NCBI GenBank assembly: GCA_963842975.1
Contig: CAWJIH010000009.1
Location: 268,310 to 332,309 of the forward strand
DNA length: 64,000 nt
Reading direction: 5' to 3'
Source: an uncultured Actinomycetes bacterium
GTDB lineage: Bacteria; Actinomycetota; Actinomycetes; S36-B12; UBA10799
In this document: piece by piece, positions 20,885 to 34,937 of the stretch
How positions within the stretch are numbered: position 1 is the first letter of the stretch
Layout: the number at the start of each line of letters is the position of its first letter
Made by a program: the position numbers and the translations under genes
Notes under the pieces: generated by a model
Told to the model about the DNA's origin: nothing
The model's input: the letters and a program-made list of their open reading frames with translations, nothing else
Databases searched by the model: none

Positions 20885-20917
20885 TCCCTCGGCGCTGGCA
20901 TCCATGCCTTGCGTACG

Positions 20918-21002
20918 TGCCCGGGGCGGGACTCGAACCCGCATGCCCCATATGGAGCCGAGGGGTTTAAGCCCTCTGCGTCTGCCATTCCGCCACCCGG
21001 GC
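20918..21002 (-). tRNA. tRNA-Leu (anticodon TAA), long variable arm
   Basis: Reverse complement GCCCGGGTGGCGGAATGG...GAGGG-CTTAAAC-CCCTC...GGGTTCGAGTCCCGCCCCGGGCA folds as a class II tRNA; CCA not encoded. Confidence 0.9.
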
Positions 21003-22031: not shown

Positions 22032-22426
22032 TGTCGATTGACACCTGACTTGACCTGACCTGACCTGACCTGACTTGGCGGTTTGATCGTCGCCGAAGGT
22101 TTCTCGGGCACGCGACAGTGGCCTCGCCCCTCACGGGCGGGGCCACTTTCGCTTTGGGGGGTGATCAACGCGGTCGGTGGTTGGGTTTGCGGTGATCAAC
22201 GCGGTTGGTGGTTGGGTTTGTGGTGATCAACGCGGTCGGTGGTCGGGTTGGTGGTGATCAACGCGGTCGGTGGTTGGGTGTGTGGTGATCAACGCGGTTG
22301 GTGGTTGGGTTGGTGGTGATCAACGCGGTCCGCGGTTGGGTTTGCGGTGATCAACTGGCCCGTTTTCCCTACTGGGCTCCGCGTTGATCATGGGTTGCCC
22401 TACTGGGACCAGCGTTGATCATCGCG
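22026..22426. repeat. left copy of long direct repeat flanking the island (pairs with 31983-32233)
   Basis: AACTAGTGTCGATTGACAYCTGACTTG...terminator hairpin...31-bp units...GTTGATCATCGCG is shared with the right copy. The length difference comes from 7 versus 3 A-type units and a (CTGAC)n expansion. Confidence 0.85.
22117..22156 (+). terminator. rho-independent-type terminator hairpin after the BI-1 gene
   Basis: AGTGGCCTCGCCC-CTCAC-GGGCGGGGCCACT (13-bp stem, one G-U) followed by TTCGCTTTGG. Confidence 0.7.
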
Positions 22427-22595
22427 GGAGGTGGTCGGGGGTGGTCATCACGGTCGGTGGTTGGGTTTGCGGTGATCATCGCGGTCGGTGGTTGGGTTTG
22501 CGGTGATCAACTGGCCCGTTTGCCCAACTGGGCCACGTGTTGATCATGGGTTGCCCTAATGGGCCCCGCGTTGATCATGGGTTGCCCCACTGGGC
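22160..22595. repeat. 31-bp tandem repeat arrays with TGATCA cores (A-type and B-type units)
   Basis: A-type GGTGATCAACGCGGTCGGTGGTTGGGTTTGC starts at 22160, 22191, 22222, 22253, 22284, 22315, 22346 (period exactly 31). B-type TGATCATGGGTTGCCCTACTGGGACCCGCGT follows. A second A+B sub-block lies at 22440-22595. No ORF >=60 aa lies in 22048-22556. Confidence 0.9.
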
Positions 22596-22901
22596 TGTCG
22601 ATTGACATGCAAGTTGGGGATCGACCCTCGTCGCATAGGAGTTCGCCCCTGTTTTCGCGCTGACTCTGGCACGACTGCGGCGGCCCTGCACATCTTTCCG
22701 GTGGGCCCGGTCGCCGACCGTTTGCTGTACCCAGCTCCTACACCTCCCAGCACAGCGTCACCCTCTGGCCGTGCGCCAGTAGAAACGTGACGTGCTTCCC
22801 CAACCAGGTGCGGCGTCCCCACCACCTGTTCCAAAAAGGGCATGCGTTCCACAGCGATCAGGCTGTGGCATCGGCCCTACCGGCGGGCACGGTCACCTGT
22901 C

Positions 22902-23765
22902 ATGCGAACCTTCCTCACCCCCGACCGTGCCGCCCGGCAGCGGAGCGGCTTCATCCTGATCGTGCTGATCGCCACCGTGACCGTCATCTCCATCCTCGCG
23001 GCGGTGGCGCTGGTCAGTGCCCAGTCAGCAATCGATCGGGTCAACCAGCGGGCCGTACAAGCCGCGGCCGTGCAGTTCACCCGCGACTTCACCGGCTCTG
23101 TCGCCTCCGGTTCCGACCCGACAGAAGCATTGAACGCTGCCGCCTCCGCTAACGCCGGCACCCCGGTGATCGTGGGTACCACCGCCACCCAGGCAGGCCC
23201 GCTGCGCATCTCCACCAACAGCCCTGGGGCTCCGGGCAGTGTCGCGATCGGCAAAGGCGGGGCATACGCCCACATCACCCTCACCGGCGACCTCACCCAG
23301 AAATCGGGCGGTGACCAAGGAGACGACGGTGTCAGTCGCATTATTCGCACCAACGTGCTCGACCAGGGCGTGTCCGCCACCGAAGACCCCGATGTGATCA
23401 ACCCGGGCCAAATCGTTCCCGCCGCCACGGACAGCAAACAGGCGCTGTCATCGTTCATGTCCCGCGTCGGTGGCGCCGGAAGCGAGGCCTTCGCCGGAGC
23501 TTCCATCGCCGCAGACGGCTCGGTCTACCTCGTCGGCCACTTCACTGGCACCGCCTCGTTCGGTTTGCACACGGTCACCTCCGCTGGTGGCTTTGACGGC
23601 TACATTGCGAAAACTGACCCGGCCGGGCGCTGGCAGTGGGTGACCACTTTCACCGGGCAAGGCCTATGGTCGGTCCCGACACACACCGGCTGCAGCACCG
23701 CAATCCAAGCCAAGCGCGGCCATTTGGGTCCGCCTCAAGCCGACGCCACTAACTATGGGTTTTGA
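22902..23765 (+). CDS. pilin-like N-terminal helix + SBBP beta-propeller-repeat protein, probably 3'-truncated
   Basis: RSG-FILIVLIATVTVISILA resembles a prepilin-type N-terminus but lacks Glu+5. C-terminal ...DGSVYLVGHFTGTASFG...GGFDGYIAKTDPAGRWQW matches the SBBP repeat pattern, and the repeat series ends abruptly. Confidence 0.5.
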   Translation: MRTFLTPDRAARQRSGFILIVLIATVTVISILAAVALVSAQSAIDRVNQRAVQAAAVQFTRDFTGSVASGSDPTEALNAAASANAGTPVIVGTTATQAGPLRISTNSPGAPGSVAIGKGGAYAHITLTGDLTQKSGGDQGDDGVSRIIRTNVLDQGVSATEDPDVINPGQIVPAATDSKQALSSFMSRVGGAGSEAFAGASIAADGSVYLVGHFTGTASFGLHTVTSAGGFDGYIAKTDPAGRWQWVTTFTGQGLWSVPTHTGCSTAIQAKRGHLGPPQADATNYGF

Positions 23766-24030
23766 TGAGGTTGTCTGAGGAGATGTCCTGCAGGAAGGCC
23801 AGGACGTCCGCACGGATCTGGCCGTCGGGCGCGTTGAAGGATCCCTCTAATTCCCGGATCAGAGCGCCCACGGTGATCGGTTCGGCCAGCAGTTCCCAGA
23901 TCCGCCGACCGACCGAATCCAGGGTCACGTAGTTGTTCGACGACATGCTGAGGATCACGAGCTCATCGTCGATCTCGGTGGACATCAGTCCAGGTGCTCG
24001 GGTGACTGTCGTATCCAAGGCGAACTCCAT
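23749..24030 (-). CDS. PqqD-family protein (second RRE-like protein of the cluster)
   Basis: 93 aa; ...DELVILSMSSNNYVTLDSVGRRIWELLAEPITVGALIRELEGSF...VLAFLQDI has the PqqD/RRE winged-helix pattern. Confidence 0.75.
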   Translation of the reverse strand: MEFALDTTVTRAPGLMSTEIDDELVILSMSSNNYVTLDSVGRRIWELLAEPITVGALIRELEGSFNAPDGQIRADVLAFLQDISSDNLIKTHS

Positions 24031-24072
24031 GTCGTGCCTCCTGCAAGGGGGTCGGGGGAACTGCTCGGGTGC

Positions 24073-24942
24073 TCACTTCGCGCCTGCGCCTTCCGGGCAG
24101 TCTGCCAAATATCCAAGCCTCGCCATTATCGGCCCGTGCGCCAGCGTCACAGCTGACACCTGCGCGGGCGTCAACTGGCCACGCCAGGCACCGCTGCGCC
24201 CATTTCGGAAGAAGCGCTCGGCGGAAAACCCCGGCCGTTCCCGGAACCCGCCGCGCAGTTCCTGTGCTTGGACTTGTGCGAAACTGGCATGCTCGACTGC
24301 GCGCTCAACCCGGTCGGTGTTGGTGTCCCATCCCAGGAATTCGACCACCCGGGCGAATTGCGCGACCGGGTCTGCGAGCAAGTCCTCATACCGCACCAAA
24401 CAGAGTCGCAGCTGGGGAGCGTCCACCCAACTGGCGACGTGAGTGCTCCACGACCCCATGAACACGGGAAGCTGCTCACGGGCGATCGTGTCGGCGGTGA
24501 TCCTGCCCCACTGCGGATCGTTCATACGTGCGATCGCTTCGTCAAGGCTCAAGCCGTAGTGGCTGGCGAACGAGGGCACTACATCCAGCGGGTTACGCAC
24601 GATGTAGACAGCGCCAGCCGTGGCATCGGGAGGGATAAGGGGCTCACCTGTGTCAACCGGGTGCCAGGCGTCGTGGATCTTCATCAGCAGTGGTTCCGGC
24701 TCGTGGTGGGCCATCAACCGATACACCTCGGGTCGAAGTCGTTCCACCAAATCCGGTGGGAGTAGCGACGCCTCCAGCCCGGCCCACTCGTCGAACCAGA
24801 GTCGGGAACTGGCAATCGGTCCTCCATCCAGCCGATTGATGTCGGCCGGTTCATCTGAGTCCTGGCGGTAGTTGGTCAGCAGTATCCGCAGCCAGGTGTT
24901 ACCCGACTTCGGGTACGAGGCAAGCCAGGTGATCTCACCCAT
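24073..24942 (-). CDS. PAPS-dependent sulfotransferase-domain protein
   Basis: YPKSGNTWLR (5'-PSB loop) and RNGRSGAWRGQL (3'-PB-like); the start ATG overlaps the kinase stop (ATGGGTGA). Confidence 0.8.
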   Translation of the reverse strand: MGEITWLASYPKSGNTWLRILLTNYRQDSDEPADINRLDGGPIASSRLWFDEWAGLEASLLPPDLVERLRPEVYRLMAHHEPEPLLMKIHDAWHPVDTGEPLIPPDATAGAVYIVRNPLDVVPSFASHYGLSLDEAIARMNDPQWGRITADTIAREQLPVFMGSWSTHVASWVDAPQLRLCLVRYEDLLADPVAQFARVVEFLGWDTNTDRVERAVEHASFAQVQAQELRGGFRERPGFSAERFFRNGRSGAWRGQLTPAQVSAVTLAHGPIMARLGYLADCPEGAGAK

Positions 24943-25813
24943 TGATGATCGCCTCGACGATCTCGTCCAGCGACCACCGTTCCTGGGGTCGGGTGATCCG
25001 CCAGACTCGCACGCTCCGGGCGAGCGCGGCCTGCACCGGGAAGCAGGCGGGTGTGTCCGCTGCCAACAACGGCCCATAGATGCAGTCCTGCAGCGCATCG
25101 AACAGTTGCGCTCCGTGTAGCCGCTTGACGCGCACCTGCGACTCTGGGCCTGTGACCAGCAGGTAGAGGTCTGCCAGCGCTACTGGCTGCACGGATGCCA
25201 CCTGCACAGGGATCACCGCTTTGGAGCGCATCGAATATCGGGACACACTCTCCTCACCTAGGCCGAGGGCGGCCACCGCCTCGGGTGTCAGATGCATCTC
25301 ACCGACCCCCGGAGCGACCGTCACCCGGCGATCTGCTGCGATGCTGACCGCCGCGACATCATCGGCAACCATGCTGGCACCCTTGGTGAGCAGGGCCGCA
25401 GCGGTGGTCGATTTGCCTGCGCCGGACAGCCCGCTGATCGCGACAGCACCCCGAGGCAGGCGCAGTGTATTGGCATGCAACACGAGCACACCTCGATTTC
25501 GCAGCACGGCCGCCATAAGGTTGTGCACAATCTGGAACGACACCATCGAGGTATCCGGCTGTGCGGATGCCTGGTATGTGATCCGGTCACCACCCTCGAC
25601 GAGGAACCGTCCAACCGCAGGCCCGCATCGCAGCAGGAATACCCCGGGGGCGGCCTGCCAGTAGTCCCCCCGGGCAGTTGCGTGATCCAAGTCGAATGGC
25701 ACTTCTCCGTGTCGCAGTTCAACGTCTGGCGACGTGGCGTCAGTTGAATGTTCCACCCCAAGTAGGGCGAAAGGCACTCGAACCTTCAGTCCGAATAACG
25801 TGTAGTCAGGCAT
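24935..25813 (-). CDS. HPr-kinase-like serine kinase (K1), lasso-precursor tailoring type
   Basis: VLVLHANT...AISGLSGAGKSTTAAALLTKGASMVADDV resembles the HprK/P C-terminal P-loop region (G.SG.GKS...LVADD). Confidence 0.75.
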   Translation of the reverse strand: MPDYTLFGLKVRVPFALLGVEHSTDATSPDVELRHGEVPFDLDHATARGDYWQAAPGVFLLRCGPAVGRFLVEGGDRITYQASAQPDTSMVSFQIVHNLMAAVLRNRGVLVLHANTLRLPRGAVAISGLSGAGKSTTAAALLTKGASMVADDVAAVSIAADRRVTVAPGVGEMHLTPEAVAALGLGEESVSRYSMRSKAVIPVQVASVQPVALADLYLLVTGPESQVRVKRLHGAQLFDALQDCIYGPLLAADTPACFPVQAALARSVRVWRITRPQERWSLDEIVEAIING

Positions 25814-26033
25814 AACAAGAAAACCCCGAACCCTGGGACGACAAAGAATTGCATCCAGCTACACAGAAGGAACCAAGTATGCCGAGCAACAAACCAACGC
25901 ATTCCCAGATAGACCAGTGCTTCACTGGAGGTATCGGTTGTACAGCGGGCAGACTGCCAAAAATCCAACACTTTGTCTTGTCTGACAGAAACCCAGGCCT
26001 GTTCTCCCGCCGATACTCGCAATCGCTATTTCG

Positions 26034-26147
26034 CTAGTCCGATTCCTCGGACGCGAAGTCGGGCCCACTGCCAGTTCCCGAAAGCGTACGGCTCAGTTCC
26101 CTGCGGTTGATCTGAGGGGAAGACCACGTCGTCTTCTCTTTCGACAT
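26034..26147 (-). CDS. lasso precursor peptide candidate A1 (37 aa): MSKEKTTWSSPQINRRELSRTL-SGTGSGPDFASEESD
   Basis: Hand translation; not in the ORF track (<60 aa). Leader has W(-15)xxP(-12)...T(-2); core Ser1 and Asp8. Lies directly upstream of K1, in a locally low-GC patch. Confidence 0.7.
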   Translation of the reverse strand: MSKEKTTWSSPQINRRELSRTLSGTGSGPDFASEESD

Positions 26148-26314
26148 TTTTACCCTTTTCTGCGATTTTCTTGCATCGGTAGGCTATCCGTTGCTGTCTC
26201 GGTGCCAACACGTACTCAGGCAGGCAGCGTCACCTACTTCAGGAACATGATCAACTTTACCGGCAACTTGGCATGAGCAGTTCGGAGCCTCCGAATCACC
26301 GTGGATGGGCTTCT

Positions 26315-26620
26315 TTACGGACCGTCGGCTAATACTGGCAGCCCCGACGCGCTGAGGGCCACTGGAACCAGATCGTCTTCCAGGACTTGCCAGCCGCGTT
26401 CCGCTATCGCGGCTGCGAGGGTGGACTTGCCCGTCCACGACATCCCGCATACAACACTGGCATGTGCAGGGCTATCGTTGGGAGGGATAGCCGCCGCGGC
26501 GTGGAGGGCGAGATGCCCGCGTTGGAAATGGGCTGCGGCTCGGGGGGTTGCCTCGGCGATCTGCGCGACCGAGTCTGGTGGGGCTTCGGGAGCAGGGAAT
26601 GCTGAGATGTCCCCATCGAT
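26315..26620 (-). pseudogene. fragment of HPrK-like kinase K2 (lacks N-terminus and C-terminal half)
   Basis: Reads IDGDISAFPAPEAPPDSVAQIAEATPRAAAHFQRGHLALHAAA...GMSWTGKSTLAA...GLPVLADGP*; near-identical DNA to 27847-28142; no start codon. Confidence 0.75.
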
Positions 26621-26935
26621 TTTGATGTGCAGTGGGAGAAGTGCGAAGAAAGACCAAAGGGTGCTGGGGCATAATTATCGAGCTCATAACACTCTCGGGG
26701 TGGATAGGGGGATGAGCCCAAGGACTTGTTGGCCGCTGTCACACCCCATCAGACAAGGCCTAGCCGTCAGGGAATACTGCTCCCGGTACTACCGTCGGTG
26801 AGGCTGCCCCCGCCAGTTAGGGTCCGACGCAACTCAGTGCGCTCGACGTTCGGACGTGTCCACGTCAGTTTTTGCGCTGTCATTCAAGTCTCCTATCACG
26901 AACATTTTGTGAAACCGTACCAGGCGCTCGGTTGT
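26325..26935. repeat. intra-cluster segmental duplication, copy a (pairs with 27847-28555)
   Basis: Near-identical by eye to copy b. Differs by a 110-bp deletion (equivalent to 28143-28252), a 1-nt indel in the precursor core and scattered substitutions. Confidence 0.85.
26767..26883 (-). CDS. lasso precursor peptide candidate A2 (38 aa): MTAQKLTWTRPNVERTELRRTL-TGGGSLTDGSTGSSIP
   Basis: Hand translation; GGAGA RBS 5 nt before the ATG; same leader register as A1 (W8, P11, T21, L22); Asp at core position 8. Confidence 0.65.
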   Translation of the reverse strand: MTAQKLTWTRPNVERTELRRTLTGGGSLTDGSTGSSIP

Positions 26936-27286
26936 TTACCGGAAGGGACGACGGTCCAGGGAGCCTGGCTCTCGGATTTTTCCTGGCATCGCTTCCGGGG
27001 GTGAGGTGAGTCGATCGTCTGCGGCGAAGTGCGGTGCCTCGTCACACCAGATGGCCCTTCAACGAAAGGGGTGCGTGTTTCAGTGGTCGACACACGCCGG
27101 TTGGCCCCGGGTTTTCCTGCTGGTGTGAGGCCAGGGGATATCTGGGCCTCTCACGGGTGAGCAGTGGAGGTCTTCCGGGTGCTGTGAGACACAGTGATGG
27201 GCGGGTAGGTGCACGAACTGTTGCGTTGGCGTGTGACGTTGTTGGAGATCACGGTGCACTGCTACGTGTGCGAGGGTTTCGGGTAT

Positions 27287-27529
27287 TTATGGCACCAAGA
27301 CACCTCGGCAACGACCGAGGAACTGTCCAACCGCAGGCCCGCATCGCAGCAGGAATACCCCGGGGGCGGCCTGCCAGTAGTCCCCCCGGGCAGTTGCGTG
27401 ATCCAAGTCGAATGGCACTTCACCGTGTCGCAGTTCAACGTCCGGCGACGTGGCGTCAGTCAACGGTTCCACCCCAAGCAGGGCGAAAGGCACTCGAACC
27501 TTCAATCCGAATAACGTGCAGTCAGGCAT
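27287..27529 (-). pseudogene. N-terminal fragment of kinase K1 (about 70 aa homologous, then a divergent tail)
   Basis: MPDCTLFGLKVRVPFALLGVEPLTDATSPDVELRHGEVPFDLDHATARGDYWQAAPGVFLLRCGPAVG matches K1 residues 1-68. DNA 27318-27529 parallels 25601-25812. Confidence 0.75.
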
Positions 27530-28229
27530 CGTTGCGCTCGCTGTCGGCCCCAGCACCACCCGAAGCATCCCCGTGGGCCGTGACCCTGGCCACGAGGTCG
27601 GCGACGTCCTCGATGCAGTCGACCCCGCGAGGGCGGTCAAGTTGCCACACCTCAACGTTGGTCGCAAGTGACGAAACCAGGCGGGCGAACGAGGCCGGTT
27701 CTAGCAGTGCGTCAGCCACGTGGCTTTGGTACACCGATCGTGTCAGCAGGTCGAAGATCTTGGCACCAGTGGCCCTCTTCACGCTCAATTCGGAGCCGCC
27801 GGGCAGGCGCAACAGGATGACCCAACGCACGGGGACTTCCGGGCGCTCGGCTAATACTGGCAGCCCCGACGCGCCGAGGGCCACCGGAACCAGATCGTCT
27901 TCCAGGACTTGCCAGCCGCGTTCCGCTAGCTCGGCTGCGAGGGTGGACTTGCCCGTCCACGACATCCCGCATATGACACTGGCATGTGCAGGGCTAGCGT
28001 TGGGAGGGACAACCGCCGCGGCGTGGAGGGCGAGATGCCCGCGTTGGAAATGGGCTGCGGCTCGGGGGGTTGCCTCGGCGATCTGCGCGACCGAGTCTGG
28101 TGGGGCTTCGGGAGCAGGGAATGCTGAGATGTCCCCATCGATCACCGTATAGTCAGCAACGCCAGGCACGCTCATGTGGAATCGTGAGCCGTCTAGACGC
28201 CACAACAGGCCGTTGGGTTGGAGTGACAT
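27522..28229 (-). CDS. HPr-kinase-like serine kinase paralog (K2)
   Basis: 235 aa; ...LALHAAAVVPPNASPAHASVICGMSWTGKSTLAAELAERGWQVLEDDLV P-loop region; the stop overlaps the ATG of the K1 fragment (ATGCCTGA). Confidence 0.7.
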   Translation of the reverse strand: MSLQPNGLLWRLDGSRFHMSVPGVADYTVIDGDISAFPAPEAPPDSVAQIAEATPRAAAHFQRGHLALHAAAVVPPNASPAHASVICGMSWTGKSTLAAELAERGWQVLEDDLVPVALGASGLPVLAERPEVPVRWVILLRLPGGSELSVKRATGAKIFDLLTRSVYQSHVADALLEPASFARLVSSLATNVEVWQLDRPRGVDCIEDVADLVARVTAHGDASGGAGADSERNDA

Positions 28230-28555
28230 CTACTCTTCTGCGGTGTCGCGCATTTGATGTGCAGTGGGAGAAGTGCGAAGAAAGACCAAAGGGTGCTGGG
28301 GCATAATTATCGAGCTCATAACACTCTCGGGGTGGATAGGAGGATGAGCCCAAGGACTTGTTGGCCGCTGTCACACCCCATCAGATAAGACCCAACCGTC
28401 AGGGAATACTGCTCCCGGTACTACCGTCGGTAGGCTGCCCGAGCCAGTTAGGGTCCGACGCAACTCAGTGCGCTCGACGTTCGGACGTGTCCACGTCAGT
28501 TTTTCCTCTGTCATTCAAGTCTCCTATCACGGCAACTTGTGAAACCGTACCAGGC
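27847..28555. repeat. intra-cluster segmental duplication, copy b (pairs with 26325-26935)
   Basis: See copy a; contains A3, the A3-K2 spacer and the 5' half of K2. Confidence 0.85.
28371..28514 (-). CDS. precursor-like ORF A3 (47 aa): MTEEKLTWTRPNVERTELRRTL-TGSGSLPTVVPGAVFPDGWVLSDGV; core frame-shifted relative to A2
   Basis: Hand translation; same RBS and leader as A2. A 1-nt gap (CAGCCT-ACCGAC versus CAGCCTCACCGAC) changes the frame after core residue 6, so there is no Asp/Glu at core positions 7-9. Confidence 0.5.
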   Translation of the reverse strand: MTEEKLTWTRPNVERTELRRTLTGSGSLPTVVPGAVFPDGWVLSDGV

Positions 28556-28583
28556 ACCAGGGGACGTTGGTCAAGGCCTTGTT

Positions 28584-30401
28584 CTATGTGGCCTCCTCCG
28601 CGACGAATAGCCCGGCCATCAGTCCGCGCGTCAGCGTCGTCACCGCAAGCCGAAACGACTCGGGGGTGTCCTCAGTTCGCACGATCTCCCACGTTCGTCG
28701 CAACAGCCGAGCATCGACCACATCCGCAGCTGGCCCAGAAGCCACCTCGTCGAGCGCTGCCTCCACCTCCCCAACGCTGCGCCGCAGGCGGATCGCGACA
28801 TCACCAGCCTGGCGGCCCCGGTTGCGGTTGAGGCGCACCTCATCCGGCAGCCGTCCAGCCATCGACGTCCGGATTAGCCACCTGTCGGTGTTGGTGCCCG
28901 GGTCGATGAACACCTCATCGGGCACCGACCAGGAATAGGCCAACAGGCGTGCGTCGGCGCTGGGATCACGGATCTCCACCCCTGCTGCCCGGCCCGCCTG
29001 GGCATGCAGCGCCCCGACGAAGGATCGGCCAGGTTGAAGAAAGTTCCGCATTTGAAGCGGTGTCCGCGGGGGCAACTGGTCCGGGTCGGCATCGAAGCGT
29101 TCCGTCAGCCGAAGCCGACGGGCGAACTCAGGGTTGATCGCAGTGTGTATGAACCGGTCCTTGCCGTGCCGCACGCGGCGAACACCCCGCACCGCCCCAG
29201 GAGGAACGCGCTGCCGCGCCTCGGCGTGCGCCCATGCTCGGACAGAATTCCGGTTGCGCCAGCGGTAGGCCATCGACTGCGAAAAAGAGCTGCCAGCCCA
29301 CGACAGGCCGGCGTTTCCGCACTGCCCTATCAGCAGCACACTGCAGCCTTGCTCGGCCGCCATCTGATTCAGGGCGATCATCCAGTACGCGTTGCCCGCC
29401 GAATGTCCGGGTTCCTGCTGGATCTCAAGTTGCCGACGAATCCCCGCCATCGGGCTGATATCCACCGCGTCCACCGGATACAGACCGACGTTGCCCGCGT
29501 GCTGAGAGATCATCCGGGCGTAGGGCAACTCGTCACCAAAACGCTTCGGCACAAACGCGCTCGTGTCCGCGATCGGCACCGAGGTGTACGCCTGGATACG
29601 CTCCCCTGGGAGCATCTCAGCCGCGGTGACAGTGATCGAACTGGAGTCAAGACCGCCGCTGAGCGTCGAACCGAGAGCCCCGCCGTCATCGCGGCGCAGT
29701 CGTGCCCGGACCGCCTCATCGAAAACCTCGGTGAAACCCTCCACGTACTCGCGGTGATCCTTCAACCGCAGCTCCGGGGTGTCCTCAAGAAACCAGTACT
29801 GACTGGTACGCACGGATTGCGGCGTGACTGTGATGGTGTGCGCCGGCGGCAGCCGCTTGATGCCGGTGCGCACCGTTCGCTCGCCGTGATACGCCGGCCA
29901 CGACACCAGCACCTGCGCCACATATAGCTCATCAATCTGGCCGGGCACCAGATTCAGATCGATCAACACCTGCTGTTCGCTGGCGAACGCGAACGTGCCC
30001 TCGGTGAGCGCGTAGTACAACGACGTCATGCCGAAGTGGTCGCGGGCCAGGAACACCTCACGGCTGTCCGGATGCCACACCGCAAAAGCCCAGTCGCCGT
30101 AGATCCGCTGCACACAGTCCGCACCCCAGCGGGTGTACGCACGATGGATCAAGTTCGCATCGTCGTGCTTAGCGTCGGTTGGTTGGTAGGTGCCCCACTC
30201 GCGGGCATCCAGCCCTAGTCCCGACAGCAACTCCTTGCGGTTGTCCACCCGCGCCGATGCTACACACACCGTGCCATCTGGGGCTTGCGACGACACCCGG
30301 CCCATAAAACGGGCACCGGGGCCAGCCCAACCCTGACCGGGTAGGTCTTGGCGCAACGGTTCGTCACGCCGGGAGATCAGACCGGACATCGTGGGGATCA
30401 C
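28584..30401 (-). CDS. asparagine-synthetase-like lasso peptide cyclase (C protein)
   Basis: About 600 aa; N-terminal glutaminase-like fold without a Cys2 start, SGGLDSS PP-loop, follows the B2 gene. GTG 30401 sits 5 nt after GGAGG (track start is 30407). Confidence 0.85.
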   Translation of the reverse strand: MIPTMSGLISRRDEPLRQDLPGQGWAGPGARFMGRVSSQAPDGTVCVASARVDNRKELLSGLGLDAREWGTYQPTDAKHDDANLIHRAYTRWGADCVQRIYGDWAFAVWHPDSREVFLARDHFGMTSLYYALTEGTFAFASEQQVLIDLNLVPGQIDELYVAQVLVSWPAYHGERTVRTGIKRLPPAHTITVTPQSVRTSQYWFLEDTPELRLKDHREYVEGFTEVFDEAVRARLRRDDGGALGSTLSGGLDSSSITVTAAEMLPGERIQAYTSVPIADTSAFVPKRFGDELPYARMISQHAGNVGLYPVDAVDISPMAGIRRQLEIQQEPGHSAGNAYWMIALNQMAAEQGCSVLLIGQCGNAGLSWAGSSFSQSMAYRWRNRNSVRAWAHAEARQRVPPGAVRGVRRVRHGKDRFIHTAINPEFARRLRLTERFDADPDQLPPRTPLQMRNFLQPGRSFVGALHAQAGRAAGVEIRDPSADARLLAYSWSVPDEVFIDPGTNTDRWLIRTSMAGRLPDEVRLNRNRGRQAGDVAIRLRRSVGEVEAALDEVASGPAADVVDARLLRRTWEIVRTEDTPESFRLAVTTLTRGLMAGLFVAEEAT

Positions 30402-30441
30402 GCGCACCTCCGCGGGCTAGCGCCCATTGTGACTGGCGGGG

Positions 30442-30948
30442 TCATCCGGTGAACCTTCCCACCGGCACATACACGTTGTTCTGCGTCGCTCCAGTGACCA
30501 CCACCGGCCCTTGCTCCAACCACGCGTGGGCACTCGACCGACCGCCAGAGCGGGACATCCCCAAAGTCACCGTCACGGGCAATCCACGCACACGAAGAAG
30601 TCGCGCCCCCGTCAAAGCCTGCGCCAGACACGTCGAGGTCCAGGGCGTGCGCGCGGCCACGGCGGTCACCGCCCGGCCCGTATCCACCGCGACCTCCCTG
30701 TCGACCCGGCCCCCCGCTATCGGTTCCGGTGACGGCCGCAACCCCAGGAACCCGGTGATGCGACGCAATGGAACCGTATTGACCGCTAGCGACATGGGCG
30801 GCAGCCACAACGCAGCCGACAGGATCAGTCGGCGCTGTCGCGGCGTCAAGGCCCGCCACTTGCGCCAGGCCGGGGCTGGAGCTTCTCCACGGCGGTGACT
30901 GTTCACGCCTGCCACGGACGTCACGGACGAGTTCACAAGAACGGCCAT
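30442..30948 (-). CDS. transglutaminase-like leader peptidase (lasso B2 protein)
   Basis: 168 aa; ...TPWTSTCLAQALTGARLL... (Cys) and ...SSAHAWLEQG... (His) are typical of lasso B2 proteins. Confidence 0.85.
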   Translation of the reverse strand: MAVLVNSSVTSVAGVNSHRRGEAPAPAWRKWRALTPRQRRLILSAALWLPPMSLAVNTVPLRRITGFLGLRPSPEPIAGGRVDREVAVDTGRAVTAVAARTPWTSTCLAQALTGARLLRVRGLPVTVTLGMSRSGGRSSAHAWLEQGPVVVTGATQNNVYVPVGRFTG

Positions 30949-30986
30949 CGTGACCTACGCCTCGCAGACCACAGGGCCCAGTTCGA

Positions 30987-31217
30987 CTAACGACCCAACC
31001 AAGCGCTCAACATAGGCTCGATCTCCACGATGTCCGCATCGAACTCTGTCGACAGGATTCCGGCGATCCGGCCGACAGTGCGTTGCTGGTCCAGCGCCGT
31101 CCAGATGGACGCACCGACATCATCCAACTCGACGTACTTCAACTCCGCCGACAACACGATGAGGGAATCAGCCACTCCTGCGGAAAGAGTTCCAGGTGCT
31201 TGCTGGTAGGTATTCAT
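30987..31217 (-). CDS. PqqD-family RRE protein (lasso B1)
   Basis: 76 aa; ...LIVLSAELKYVELDDVGASIWTALDQQRTVGRIAGIL...; immediately upstream of B2; GGAG-rich RBS. Confidence 0.8.
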   Translation of the reverse strand: MNTYQQAPGTLSAGVADSLIVLSAELKYVELDDVGASIWTALDQQRTVGRIAGILSTEFDADIVEIEPMLSAWLGR

Positions 31218-31457: not shown

Positions 31458-32005
31458 TACCAGGCGCAGGCCCGCAACCCACTACGGTCGGCGCGTTTAT
31501 TGAGCAAAGTCCGCGCTGACGGCACCCGCACTTCCTTGACCCAGCCTCCCCTCTCGGGGCGTCTCACCTCTGACGGGTTCGGCGGTGCCGTACTTGCAGC
31601 AGTGACACCACTCACCAGCACTGTCACGTTGGGGAACGGGGTCACCCTGCCCGCCAACACCTCAGGTGGGCTGCTCAGTTTCGTTGCTGCCCGCATCGCT
31701 GCAGACGGAACCTGGCTGTGGGCGGGGTCGGCACCCACAACTGTGACCGGCGTCGTACCCCAACTCTGTGGATAAGGCTGGATGCGGTGCGGCTGGCCCC
31801 AAACGGTTCAGTTCTCGTGTCCGGGCAATTCTTCAACAAGGTCCTTTTCGACCAGCCTGTTGTGGCTGAAGTCACCTCATTCGGCGGCACCGACGGCATC
31901 GTCATCCGCTTCTATCCCACCAGCCGAATAACCCCCCGAGCCCCACGCGGCACCCGAGGTGCCAACTTGGATGTCAATCGACAACTAGTGTCGATTGACA
32001 TCTGA
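31458..32005 (+). pseudogene. SBBP beta-propeller-repeat gene remnant (two frames, shift near 31750-31770)
   Basis: ...SDGFGGAVLAAVTP...GGLLSFVAARIAADGTWLWAG... (frame a) and ...AVRLAPNGSVLVSGQFFNK...FGGTDGIVIRF... (frame b); same strand as the 22902-23765 ORF. Confidence 0.55.
31970..32002. promoter_or_regulatory. perfect 14-bp inverted repeat GATGTCAATCGACA-ACTAG-TGTCGATTGACATC at the island/right-repeat junction
   Basis: Read directly. The TGTCGATTGACA half also occurs at 22032-22043 and 22596-22607. Function unknown. Confidence 0.5.
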
Positions 32006-32233
32006 CTTGGCGATGTGACCGTCGCTGAGGGTTTCTCGCGCACGCGAAAGTGGCCTCGCCCCTCACGGACGGGGCCACTTTCGCTTTGGTGGTGATCAAC
32101 GCGGTCGGTGGTTGGGTTGGTGGTGATCAACGCGGTCCGCGGTTGGGTTTGCGGTGATCAACTGGCCCGTTTTCCCTACTGGGACCCGTGTTGATCATGG
32201 GTTGCCCTACTGGGACCCGCGTTGATCATCGCG
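31983..32233. repeat. right copy of long direct repeat flanking the island (pairs with 22026-22426)
   Basis: Same order of elements as the left copy: GTCGATTGACA motif, hairpin, 3 A-type 31-bp units (32091, 32122, 32153), 2 B-type units. Confidence 0.85.
32049..32088 (+). terminator. terminator-like hairpin (copy of 22117-22156)
   Basis: AGTGGCCTCG...CGGGGCCACT stem followed by TTCGCTTTGG. Confidence 0.6.
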
Positions 32234-32395
32234 CCCATACGCGCACCCCCCTCGCCCGCCGCGCAACGTGACGTTAGGGGCTACCTGAACCGGCCGAACA
32301 GGTCCACGGCAGTCACGTGTGTTGGTGATGGATCGCGCCCCGGGCGGCACCCCGTTGGGCATAGTGACTGCCCGGGTGTTCCGATCTCGGCCGTC

Positions 32396-32446
32396 GGCCA
32401 CGGCCACGGCCACGGCCACGGCCATCGGCCGATCGGCCACGGCCAC
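32396..32446. repeat. hexanucleotide microsatellite (GGCCAC)n, interrupted
   Basis: GGCCAC x4, GGCCAT, CGGCCGATC, GGCCAC x2 read directly; a nearby (CCGGA)n-like run lies at about 32512-32535. Confidence 0.85.
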
Positions 32447-32860: not shown

Positions 32861-34625
32861 TCAGCGGCTGGGTTGCCCGCGATCCTTCCGGGCCTTGACC
32901 CGCTGACCTTTCAGCCGGGTGCTGCCGAGGGCTGCGATAACGTTTGCGGCCGCATCACTGGGGACGTCGACTGTGGTGTGTCGAGGCCGAATATCGATTG
33001 GCCCGATCTGTGAACCGGGCAATCCCGTCTCGTTTGCGATCGCCCCCACCACGTCTTGTGGTCGGATCCCCGCGTCGTTGCCAGCGTTGATGAAGATGCG
33101 CTGCTTGCCTTTCCCCGGTGGTCCGCCGCGGCCACCCTGGCGTTCCTTGCCTCCGCCACCTCCGCCAGCGCCGCCGGACCCGCCTGCGCGTTCCCGGTTC
33201 TTGAACCCGCCGGCGCCATCCCGTCGGCCGTGCCCGTGCTTGTCACCGCGATGATCACCGCGGCGCTCGCGCGGTTCGCTCACCTCGGGAATGTCGGTTT
33301 CGCCTTCGTCCCCGACCGTCGCCAGGTGCGTGGATTTGATGGCAGCCAACGCCACCTGTTCGATCCCGGCGTCCTCTGTGAGCGCGTCCAGCAGGGGCCG
33401 GAAACTGTCCAGGTCATCGTCCAAGCAGGTAAGCGCCAGGCGCGCCCTCGTCACTTCCAGGCGTCGCTCGCGCAACTGTGCGGAGGTGGGGAGTTTCCCG
33501 AGTTCGATCTGCTGGCCGGTGCTCCGGCCGATGGCGCTGAGTTGGCGGCGTTCCCGCGGTTCGGCGATCGTGATCGCGGTTCCGGTGCGATCGCCGCGGC
33601 CAACGCGGCCGATCCGGTGCACATACGATTCCGACGCAGCCGGCACATCGAAGTTGACCACGTGGGTGAGGTGGTCGACGTCGAGGCCGCGGGCGGCGAC
33701 ATCGGTGGCCACCAGCAGTTCGGCATTGCCGCTGCGCAGGCGGGTCATCACCCGGTCCCGCATTGCCTGATCCATGCCGCCGTGCAGTGCCTCGGCGCGG
33801 TAGCCACGACCATTGAGGGTTTCGGTAAGTTGATCCACATCTGCCCTGGTGCGGCAGAACACCAGCGCCGCCGTGGGTGATTCGATATCCAGGATGCGCC
33901 CGAGCGCTGCTGCCTTGTAGGGGCGCGCCACGACGTAGGCGACCTGTCGGATCTTGGGTCCTTCGTCGGGTGCCTGGGTTTCCCGTTCGATGGCGATGCG
34001 CAGGGGATCGTTCAAGTGGTTCTGGGCGATCCGCAGGATGCGGTGAGGCATCGTGGCTGAGAACATGACCGTTTGGCGATCCGCTGGAGCCTGCGAGAGG
34101 ATCTCTTCGATGTCCTCGGCAAAACCCATGTCGAGCATCTCATCGGCTTCATCGAGCACAACCGTGGCAACGTCGTGCAGCTTCAGCGATCGGCGATTCA
34201 GCAGGTCCAGCGCTCGGCCGGGGGTGGCCACCACGATGTCGACGCCGCGCTTGAGCGCGGTGATCTGGCGCCCGATGGGTTGACCGCCGTAGACCGGCAA
34301 GGTGCGCACGTCGAAAGGGCGACCGTAGCGGTGTACGGCCTGGGCCACCTGCATACACAATTCTCGGGTCGGCGCCAACACGAGCGCTGTGGGCAGGTTG
34401 CCGCGGAGCCTGCTCTTCGCTCATGCCGCTGACGATGGGCAGCGCGAAGGCCGCGGTCTTGCCGGTGCCCGTGGCGGCCTGGCAGAGCAGGTCGCGGCCG
34501 GTCAGCATTTCCGGGATAGCGGCGTTTTGAATGGGGGTGGGGGCTTCGTAGCCGAGGGTGGTGAGGCTGGATACGAGGTCTGGGTGGAGTCCGAGGGATT
34601 CGAATCCAGGGTCTTCAGTTGTCAC
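32861..34625 (-). pseudogene. DEAD-box RNA helicase (DeaD/CshA-like with DbpA-type C-terminal domain), frameshifted near 34381-34423
   Basis: The Q-motif and Walker A (TPIQ..., AATGTGKT) lie in one frame (34149-34676 ORF). PTRELCMQV, DEADEM, SAT, HRIGRVGR and the Gly/Arg-rich tail lie in another (32861-34381). Removing one C from the CCC run (plus-strand GGG at 34391-34393) would give ...RQPATALVLAPTREL. Confidence 0.8.
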
Positions 34626-34937
34626 GCAAGTAAGTCCTGTTCTCTGGCCGGTCGCGAGTGCGACGCAACCGTACAAGCGTAGGGGGTGGCCGCGCGCGCT
34701 ACACGAACGCGGGTCAAATGAACTGCGCCCGACAGCCAGACAGCAGGTATCCGGAGAACTCCGGCAGCTCGCTGAAGACCTTCAGGCCGGAGGCACCAAG
34801 CGCCACCAGCGAAACGAACTGCGCCCACCACCCGGAGCCCATCGACTGCGTGTGGCCCCAGGTGGTGAGAACGACGTGGGCGGTGATGAGGCCGACCGAC
34901 GGTGCGGGCGAGCACACTCATCTATGTGCCCCGGCAG

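Follow-up and report, generated by a model that had tools for sequence, protein, structure and literature searches.

A Lasso Peptide Gene Cluster with a Conserved Two-Kinase and Sulfotransferase Cassette in an Uncultured Actinobacterium

Gene Organization of the Locus

We analyzed a 64-kb stretch of DNA from the genome of an uncultured member of the Actinomycetota (assembly GCA_963842975.1, contig CAWJIH010000009.1, positions 268,310 to 332,309), here called the window, in which an island at 23749-31217 is a genuine lasso peptide cluster belonging to a group that is known bioinformatically and chemically unsolved. A variable region some 7.5-8 kb long harbours the island. Taken together, the data make it probable that we are dealing with a paeninodin-like lasso cluster of class II whose framework is a widely conserved cassette encoding a macrolactam synthetase (C), two HPrK-like kinases (Ka and Kb), a sulfotransferase (ST), a PqqD-like protein (B1) and a leader peptidase (B2); this assessment includes the division into working and relic genes and the mechanism proposed below. 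PqqD-like proteins act as the recognition element (RRE) for peptides that are synthesized ribosomally and then modified post-translationally (RiPPs).

A sequence-only reading of the same DNA had described a lasso cluster of the B1/B2/C type with all its genes on the minus strand. This description was borne out by the list of open reading frames (ORFs), in which every ORF described was confirmed on that strand, by the Pfam and NCBIfam models, against which the window proteins were compared for family assignment, and by the features of the precursors. In the direction of transcription the genes are PqqD1, B2, C, A1, K2, A2, A3, K1, ST and PqqD2, to which two kinase fragments at 27316-27529 and 26315-26614, missed in the first inventory, have to be added:

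30987-31217, minus strand: PqqD1, a divergent extra RRE, probably a pseudogene (PF05402, E 6e-09)
30442-30948, minus strand: B2 leader peptidase, a transglutaminase-like Cys protease (PF13471, Transglut_core3, E 1e-19; NF033537, lasso_biosyn_B2, 72 bits with a cut-off of 33)
28584-30407, minus strand: C, an Asn-synthetase-like lasso macrolactam synthetase (PF00733, E 8e-28; GATase_7, E 9e-20; lasso cyclase model, 255 bits)
28371-28514, minus strand: precursor A1, frameshifted by a 1-nt deletion relative to A2 (pseudogene or sequencing error)
27522-28229, minus strand: K2, an HPrK-like protein of the Ka clade with a P-loop, short form (35% identical to Ka from locus L011)
27287-27529, minus strand: K1 fragment, the first 71 codons, nearly identical to the 5' part of K1 and overlapping the K2 stop
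26767-26883, minus strand: precursor A2, 38 aa (pattern W8, P11, T21, D30)
26315-26614, minus strand: K2 fragment, a truncated internal part with no start (96% identical to 27837-28136)
26034-26147, minus strand: precursor A3, 37 aa (W/P/T(-2)/D8 pattern as in A2)
24935-25813, minus strand: K1, a Kb-clade HPrK-like kinase (39-47% identity to cassette Kb proteins)
24073-24942, minus strand: ST, a sulfotransferase of the type dependent on 3'-phosphoadenosine 5'-phosphosulfate (PAPS) (PF00685, E 9e-27)
23749-24030, minus strand: PqqD2, the genuine cassette RRE (B1) (PF05402, E 9e-16; lasso_PqqD_Bac, 61 bits)

The families that had been put forward as a check (PqqD, Transglut_core3, Asn_synthase and sulfotransferase) were all matched with good scores. 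C contains the SGGLDSS PP-loop motif, and its 255 bits with the NCBIfam lasso cyclase model lie under the 525-bit exception cut-off of that model. In an alignment with nine homologues, B2 keeps both the Cys (TCLAQAL) and the His (AHAW) columns. Every ORF of the island was assigned to a family or recognized as a fragment, none of them being a SpI-type peptidase, a MsbA-type exporter or an NTP transferase. No ABC exporter, isopeptidase or nucleotidyltransferase was found in the island, in agreement with the sequence-only reading for the first two, or in the neighbouring genes scanned, which represent part of the ORFs of the 64 kb.

We propose that B2, C, K2 (as Ka), A2, A3, K1 (as Kb), ST and PqqD2 (as B1) are the working parts of the cluster, and that PqqD1, A1 and the two kinase fragments remain as relics from a partial tandem duplication and an old RRE duplication.

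A Conserved Cassette in Related Loci

Relatives of the island were collected from the direct neighbourhoods of homologues and from at least 56 loci of representative genomes, annotated with hidden Markov models made from the window proteins, giving about 60 loci altogether (numbered with the prefix L). A fixed cassette of C, Ka, Kb, ST and PqqD, with B2 following where it was detected, is present in at least five independent loci (L064, L004, L005/L008, L011 and L007). The exact order occurs in L064, which has neither exporter nor nucleotidyltransferase, in L004 and in L011 (Chloroflexi). It is also kept in L007 (Desulfuromonadaceae), where Ka was seen only in the translated gap between C and Kb. 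The locus of Sporomusa silvacetica DSM 10669 (CP155573, about 2.648-2.655 Mb; L005/L008) reads precursor-C-Ka-Kb-ST-PqqD-NTP_transf_5, with a gene for CysN/adenosine 5'-phosphosulfate (APS) kinase and ABC transporters adjacent, and B2 was not detected within 10 kb of it. In L002 the cassette genes are present in a rearranged form, with two RREs in two gene groups. NTP_transf_5 genes accompany the related cassettes of L002, L004 and L005.

ST adjoins a kinase in at least about 14 independent lasso loci, and such loci span at least nine phylum-level groups, archaea included (Bacillota, Thermodesulfobacteriota, Chloroflexota, Actinomycetota, Acidobacteriota, Pseudomonadota, Bacteroidota, Cyanobacteriota and Thermoplasmatota). 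Judged from these gene orders, Ka-Kb-ST is the fixed core of a widespread cassette and not an add-on, which replaces the earlier view of the kinases and the sulfotransferase as an unusual accumulation. Lasso-type clusters with HPrK-like kinases were also seen in metagenome-assembled genomes (MAGs) of archaea of the Thermoplasmatota, namely L033 (10678-14126) and L012 (9989-14493), the former of which also encodes a sulfotransferase as well as four WxxP precursors with a C-terminal Ser.

The novelty claimed for the gene combination had been overstated, because a 2014 report (PMC4289311) already described lasso clusters with HPr-kinase and sulfotransferase genes, and Zhu et al., as summarized in PMC8498205, found such genes beside some lasso clusters in 2016. 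What is new here is that the two-kinase and sulfotransferase cassette has been defined along with its precursor signature, that the RREs have been reassigned and that this copy shows evidence of decay. The family can now be defined by a fixed gene order, two kinase paralogues and the precursor signature, while for this window the outcome is chiefly a corrected annotation that tells the likely functional RRE and precursors from the relics.

Precursor Peptides

Three leader-bearing precursors had been predicted, and the leaders of A1, A2 and A3 were all found to carry the WxxPx[VI] motif (TWTRPNV and TWSSPQI); WxxP is the hallmark of paeninodin-like leaders (PMC13381572). As for the cores, only those of A2 and A3 are usable. 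The predicted core of A2 is TGGGSLTDGSTGSSIP, divided into TGGGSLTD and GSTGSSIP, and that of A3 is SGTGSGPDFASEESD, divided into SGTGSGPD and FASEESD, corresponding to an 8-residue ring followed by a tail of 7-8 residues. Both are acidic and rich in Gly, Ser and Thr, as had been described, and neither contains Tyr. The A2 gene has an AGGAG sequence 7 nt upstream of its ATG.

The 12 precursors of the cassette-type loci could be aligned with no internal gaps; Trp(-15), Pro(-12), Thr(-2) and Asp8 do not vary among them, and Gly4 hardly does. The corresponding residues of A2, namely W8, P11, T21 (leader position -2) and D30 (core Asp8), are invariant in 12/12 of these peptides, and the signature of the family can be written as W-x-x-P ... 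T-x / X1 ... D8-G ... S-[ST], with the slash preceding core residue 1. The [Y/W]xxPx[LVI] leader, Thr(-2) and an Asp or Glu at core positions 7-9 are all present in A2 and A3, whereas A1 has no such acidic residue because of its frameshift. Its leader differs from that of A2 in only 2 of the first 24 residues, and the deletion of 1 nt at 28435 (AGCCT-ACC vs AGCCTCACC in A2) disrupts the reading frame of the core, so that the ring-forming Asp8 is lost. None of the NCBIfam models recognizes the precursors, even at E <= 10.

The cassette precursors have a short Gly/Ser/Thr tail, and that of A2 almost matches one of the L004 tails (GGTGSSF). Because the tail is of this kind, a C-terminal Ser is absent in 11/12 precursors and Tyr is not conserved, the kinase and ST targets would most likely be internal Ser/Thr residues. 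The two intact cores end in SSIP (A2) and EESD (A3), so that phosphorylation of a C-terminal Ser, which had been carried over from paeninodin, is inapplicable to them. In single-kinase loci, with or without ST, the precursors mostly end in Ser, like paeninodin.

HPrK-like Kinases and Internal Duplication

The earlier assignment of K1 and K2 to HPrK-like kinases had only sub-threshold support from Hpr_kinase_C (PF07475), which returned 26.9 bits for K1 and 16.2 bits for K2 with a Pfam cut-off of 33.3, and it was sustained by structural comparison for K1 and by placement among cassette kinases for K2. A profile of 33 K1 homologues matched the HPrK/P structures 3tqf, 1jb1 and 1ko7 (E 2e-06 to 2e-05) over a region spanning H-A-N...GxSGxGKS...DD, and the AlphaFold model of K1, with a predicted local distance difference test (pLDDT) score of 91.6, matched HPrK/P and the related PEP-carboxykinase fold. 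K1 keeps 14/14 family-invariant residues, including H113, GAGKST and D152. It has 268 detectable homologues, the nearest being two metagenome proteins 87-90% identical to it (one of them partial) and the next best one 50% identical, while its identity of 39-47% to the Kb proteins of the cassette loci places it in the Kb clade. K2 aligns with the Ka paralogues, sharing 35% identity with L011 Ka over 241 aa (E 5e-33), and has a weak match to HprK_rel_A (3e-08).

In the canonical cassettes both kinases carry GDSGAGKST and ADD, whereas the window Ka has GMSWTGKST, with a Trp in Walker A, and a short N-terminus that leaves it shorter than most Ka proteins. Its closest counterpart, the Ka of L002 (2418-3158), overlaps the sulfotransferase start and no longer has the lysine of Walker A (GGSLCGRSS); it may be a pseudokinase that serves ST as an adaptor. 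A chimeric origin of K2, for which an "internal deletion" seen against some Ka proteins might speak, was considered and rejected, since Ka orthologues differ in length at this place and the alignment with L011 Ka runs through it.

The two fragments could be traced to internal duplications. The segment 26315-26900 is 96-97% identical to 27837-28531, the repeated unit being a precursor gene joined by the 5' portion of K2. The lower copy has lost the start codon of K2 through a deletion of 110 nt, and its frame ends with LPVLADGP and a stop. Similarly, 27316-27529 is 95% identical to 25600-25813, corresponding to the first 71 codons of K1, and this copy overlaps the stop of K2 (94% identity in a tblastn search with K1 residues 1-71 against the fragment). 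Because of these duplications, and because other cassettes are arranged in this way, the ancestral order was probably A-Ka-Kb with coupled stop and start; the segment [A-Ka-5'Kb] was probably duplicated, and the copies then decayed.

The Sulfotransferase

The start of ST had been set at 25098; this longer ORF was rejected in favour of a start at 24942, which gives a protein of 289 aa and an overlap of 8 nt with the K1 stop, and which was called identically on L001, an independent variant of the locus described below. The overlap between Kb and ST amounts to 4-8 nt in L005 and L007. The protein matches PF00685 (Sulfotransfer_1) with 94 bits against a cut-off of 22 and contains YPKSGNTW and RNGRSGAW, in full agreement with its previous description as a PAPS-type sulfotransferase. 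Among solved structures, Teg12, to which it was aligned, Teg14 and StaL come nearest (E 2e-17 to 3e-12). With the sulfotransferases of L002 and of the five cassette loci that have two kinases it shares 42-51% identity, and with those of other lasso loci 32-44%.

Among 13 lasso-linked sulfotransferases the 5'-phosphosulfate-binding (PSB) loop PKSGNTW, K-x-H, the 3'-PB motif RNPxD...S and the C-terminal FFRxGxxGxW are invariant or nearly so. The window protein retains K88/H90 (the catalytic His), R116/S124, FFRxGxxGxW and the PAPS loops. No APS kinase or other PAPS-synthesis gene was found in the 64-kb window, and APS-kinase genes adjoin the cluster only in L002 and Sporomusa. Because the position of ST is conserved, its active site is intact and the cores have no Tyr, the enzyme is predicted to sulfate Ser/Thr residues or a phosphate group of the lasso precursor.

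Alternatively, the product might be phosphorylated only, with ST acting on another metabolite or on a sugar, or being non-catalytic. We know of no precedent for Ser/Thr O-sulfation of a bacterial RiPP, which would speak for this explanation, as would the many ST loci that also carry NTP_transf_5, a protein that adds a hexose to phospho-Ser in pseudomycoidin. No sulfated lasso peptide is reported in the literature searched: the earlier statement that none has been characterized agrees with our search to mid-2026, conducted mostly outside subscription journals, and a 2026 review of interlocked peptides does not give sulfation among the lasso modifications. The lasso-cluster sulfotransferase is regarded as uncharacterized in a 2021 review (PMC8498205), according to which the paeninodin studies leave ST unaddressed. 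However, ST, placed between Kb and the RRE, is coupled to the former in translation; minimal cassettes devoid of glycosylation genes (L064 and the window) still retain it, its residues for catalysis and PAPS binding do not vary within the family, and an APS kinase is linked to it in two loci. We therefore judge a product with phosphate alone unlikely and favour a role of ST on the peptide.

Two RREs

The comparison of the two PqqD proteins reversed their roles. The protein at 23749-24030 had been taken as the second, extra PqqD, and proved to be the orthologue of the cassette RREs. PqqD2 scores 58 bits with PF05402 (cut-off 23.4) and is 44-52% identical to the single RRE of L007, L063, L011, L004 and L064 and to the b-copy of L002, whereas the best match of PqqD1 to any other RRE reaches 35-40%, the second-best (40%, 60 residues) being PqqD2 itself. 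On the basis of these identities PqqD2, at the far end of the cluster, is the cassette's own B1, and PqqD1, beside B2, is a supernumerary damaged copy. In the window, a 1-nt deletion at 31014 truncates PqqD1 C-terminally, swapping its last helix for 10 unrelated residues. The L001 copy retains a longer C-terminus (...EPDVERLVGSLVELGLV) that fits the RRE profile to its end, and has its start changed from ATG to ATC and an in-frame stop. Two RREs per locus also occur in L002, L041 and L060 and are not the rule.

Two RREs, two kinases and two leader types might be taken to indicate two RiPP pathways, one for a lasso peptide (PqqD1-B2-C, A1/A2 and K2) and one for a linear phospho/sulfo-peptide (A3-K1-ST-PqqD2) similar to the linear polyphosphorylated peptides (LPPs), whose clusters of an RRE and an HprK-kinase occur beside lasso clusters (PMC13381572); L002 likewise has its two RREs in two gene groups. 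We consider such a division highly improbable and rejected an LPP-type second pathway. The canonical cassettes unite both kinases, ST, a single RRE, C and B2, and A3 has Thr(-2) and Asp8 as all lasso precursors of the family do. In addition, both leaders are of the WxxP type and not of the LPP type YxxPxVLxHQ, the island is devoid of the peptidase, exporter and NTP transferase that go with LPP clusters, and PqqD1 is damaged. A single lasso pathway served by PqqD2 is thus preferred.

An Independent Variant and Signs of Decay

L001 is a metagenome contig of 8.8 kb (ENA ERZ25039514), 99.65% identical to the window and with the same architecture. A2, A3, K1, K2 and PqqD2 are identical in the two variants, ST differs by 1 nt and C by 8 nt, 6 of which are synonymous and 2 amino-acid changing. 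Seven differences were counted in the 231 nt of PqqD1 and six in the 144 nt of A1. At the very spot of the window's deletion, the A1 gene of L001 has a +1 insertion leading to an early stop, and 2/3 of the indels between the variants fall within the 375 nt of PqqD1 and A1. From this alignment PqqD1 and A1 are read as decaying genes, and an identical working set accompanied by lesions in the relics fits selection on the working set. With its partial decay, the window locus offers a poor starting point for experiments.

A gene for a DbpA-type DEAD-box helicase at 32861-34676 (minus strand) is frameshifted near 34381-34430, with GTGKT (motif I) and the sequence from PTREL onwards in different frames. 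This split reflects either a real pseudogene or an assembly indel, and because of it an assembly error is also conceivable for the frameshifts in A1 and PqqD1.

Genomic Surroundings

The gene set of the window includes tRNA-Gln, glmU, mfd and ppx. The nearest taxon-labelled relatives of GlmU are from an Actinomycetota MAG (61% identity) and from the Actinomycetes MAG carrying L029 (62%), which together with the gene set points to an Actinomycetota genome. Upstream, ppx, ACT, def, tRNA-Leu and BaxI are syntenic in relatives, and nothing is conserved downstream of BaxI; the cluster genes were absent from 80 BaxI-related loci, at most 79% identical and mostly on short contigs. The tRNA-Leu(taa) gene lies at 20917-21002 (minus strand), about 1 kb left of the left flanking repeat, with the BaxI-like gene between them. 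tRNA genes are common landmarks of variable regions.

The island lies in a 9.9-kb segment flanked on either side by direct repeats that are absent from the rest of the 64 kb:

22070-22613, plus strand: left flanking repeat, a 90-nt hairpin unit followed by 31-nt tandem repeats (partner at 32002-32233)
32002-32233, plus strand: right flanking repeat, two 31-nt repeats after a 90-nt unit that matches the left copy at 90% identity

The 90-nt unit contains a GC-rich hairpin (GTGGCCTCGCCCC...GGGGCCAC), and the 31-nt tandem repeat (GGTGATCAACGCGGTCGGTGGTTGGGTTTGY) is present in at least 8 copies on the left and 2 on the right. These repeats could belong to an intergenic repeat family or be the trace of the acquisition of the segment. 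Just to the right of the right repeat, the hexanucleotide CGGCCA is repeated 8 times at 32395-32446.

An ORF at 22842-23765 (plus strand) with a prepilin-like N-terminus contains a single SBBP beta-propeller blade, where intact relatives have 7, and ends at the start of the island. A tblastn search of the whole window with three relative proteins returned SBBP repeats only at 23358-23648 (E <= 1e-3); decayed, frameshifted blades at 31581-31921 (plus strand) were detected with E of about 1e-4, only in a search space of 900 nt. Because a single blade lies on one side and decayed blades lie beyond the other end of the island, the cluster may have landed inside a beta-propeller gene, an idea for which the evidence is suggestive and falls short of proof.

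An apparent insertion into a broken gene, together with the absence of the cluster from the BaxI loci just mentioned, is also what would be expected if the cluster were a horizontally acquired lasso island in decay, a non-functional relic that yields no mature peptide in this organism. The disruption of A1 and PqqD1 by different lesions in the two variants, the two kinase fragments, the atypical P-loop of K2 and the lack of a nearby exporter or PAPS gene among the genes scanned are in line with such a fate. It is nevertheless a doubtful explanation, considering that B2, C, K1, K2, ST, PqqD2, A2 and A3 are intact with all the family-invariant residues, that the substitutions in C are predominantly synonymous, that A2, A3, K1, K2 and PqqD2 stay identical between variants while the relics gather lesions, and that L064 has an equally minimal cassette with no exporter. 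We therefore hold to a cluster in which a working set persists beside relics.

Proposed Pathway

From the gene identities, the conservation of the cassette, the precursor invariants and the gene decay observed in the window and its relatives, we infer the chemistry, the modification sites, the order of the steps and the threaded topology as follows. By homology, PqqD2 would bind the WxxPx[V/I] leader of A2 and A3. The HPrK-like kinases would then phosphorylate internal Ser/Thr residues of the tail (around positions 11-14, G-x-T-G-S-S) on the linear precursor; kinases of this type act on linear lasso precursors (PMC8498205), HPrK-like RiPP kinases are assisted by an RRE, and LppK can polyphosphorylate an internal Ser (PMC13381572). 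Since no Tyr is conserved, the PAPS-dependent ST would sulfate a Ser/Thr hydroxyl or, conceivably, the phosphate itself. B2 is expected to cut after Thr(-2)-Leu(-1), and C to join the new N-terminus (Thr1 or Ser1) to Asp8, so that the predicted products are lasso peptides of 16 and 15 residues in which an 8-membered ring is followed by a short, strongly anionic tail.

That the cassette clusters make lasso peptides bearing both O-phosphate and O-sulfate on the tail Ser/Thr residues, or a phospho-sulfate on the kinase product, is put forward tentatively, as a possibility that we do not hold to be the likelier outcome. The anionic groups introduced on the linear precursor might double as steric plugs for a tail that has none otherwise.

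Several observations weigh against the interpretation given here. No product has been observed for any cluster with the C-Ka-Kb-ST-B1-B2 cassette, and the genes scanned in the 64 kb include no exporter, nucleotidyltransferase or PAPS-synthesis gene. Both kinases score below the Pfam threshold; given the atypical Walker A and reduced length of K2 and the missing Walker Lys of its L002 counterpart, Ka may be drifting towards a non-catalytic role or a pseudokinase in this lineage. The tails carry no obvious bulky plug residues, so that a threaded lasso would not be assured, and the relic genes with the frameshifted helicase make it possible that the region is decaying or that the assembly contains indel errors.

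If the proposal is true, sulfation would be seen for the first time in a lasso peptide, and Ser/Thr sulfation for the first time in a bacterial RiPP. An ST acting on the peptide would add Ser/Thr O-sulfation to the modifications known for lasso peptides and for bacterial RiPPs at large and would provide RRE-guided pairs of kinase and sulfotransferase for peptide engineering. The best entry point is Sporomusa silvacetica DSM 10669, which is cultured and has PAPS-synthesis and exporter genes adjoining its cassette.

Comparison with Known Systems

StaL, Teg12 and Teg14 are PAPS-dependent Sulfotransfer_1 enzymes whose targets are phenolic or benzylic hydroxyls on the aglycones of non-ribosomal glycopeptides. 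ST shares with them (PDB 2ov8/4eec, 3mg9 and 3nib) the PSB loop, the catalytic His of KxH and the RNPxD motif, whereas its proposed substrate, in contrast to theirs, has no conserved aromatic hydroxyl. Among bacterial RiPPs, RaxX (a sulfatyrotide) is sulfated by RaxST, a tyrosine sulfotransferase that uses PAPS and acts on the linear peptide. The target there is Tyr, which the window cores do not contain.

The closest parallel is the paeninodin group (PadeK, ThcoK and SyanK), as summarized in PMC8498205 after Zhu et al. 2016. The window cluster has in common with it the split B1/B2 together with C, the WxxP leader, Thr(-2) and a cluster-encoded HPrK-like kinase, which in paeninodin acts on the linear precursor. 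That group has one kinase where the window cassette has the two paralogues Ka and Kb, and the paeninodin phosphosite is the C-terminal Ser, whereas the intact cores of the window end otherwise. Unlike the paeninodin group, the window cassette has ST as a fixed core gene between Kb and B1, shows no ABC exporter or nucleotidyltransferase in the island and the scanned neighbours, and belongs to an actinobacterium instead of a Firmicute or Proteobacterium.

In pseudomycoidin (PsmK/PsmN; Zyubko et al. 2019, as summarized in PMC8498205), the phosphate added by the kinase is a handle for a second tailoring enzyme, as is likewise proposed here. That second enzyme is a nucleotidyltransferase, none of which was found in the window, while its place would here be taken by a PAPS-type sulfotransferase.

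Finally, the LPP systems (LppK/LppB/LppS; PMC13381572) were reported by Popov et al. in 2026 as clusters of an RRE and an HprK-kinase for linear polyphosphorylated peptides, with a YxxPxVLxHQxIxFET leader, a SpI/SipW-type peptidase, a MsbA-type exporter and an NTP transferase. They share with the window a discrete RRE and an HprK-like kinase, the occurrence of two RREs per locus where they lie beside lasso clusters and, with our proposal, the phosphorylation of an internal Ser. Unlike the LPP clusters, the window contains both C and B2, precursors with Thr(-2) and Asp8, and the WxxP leader.

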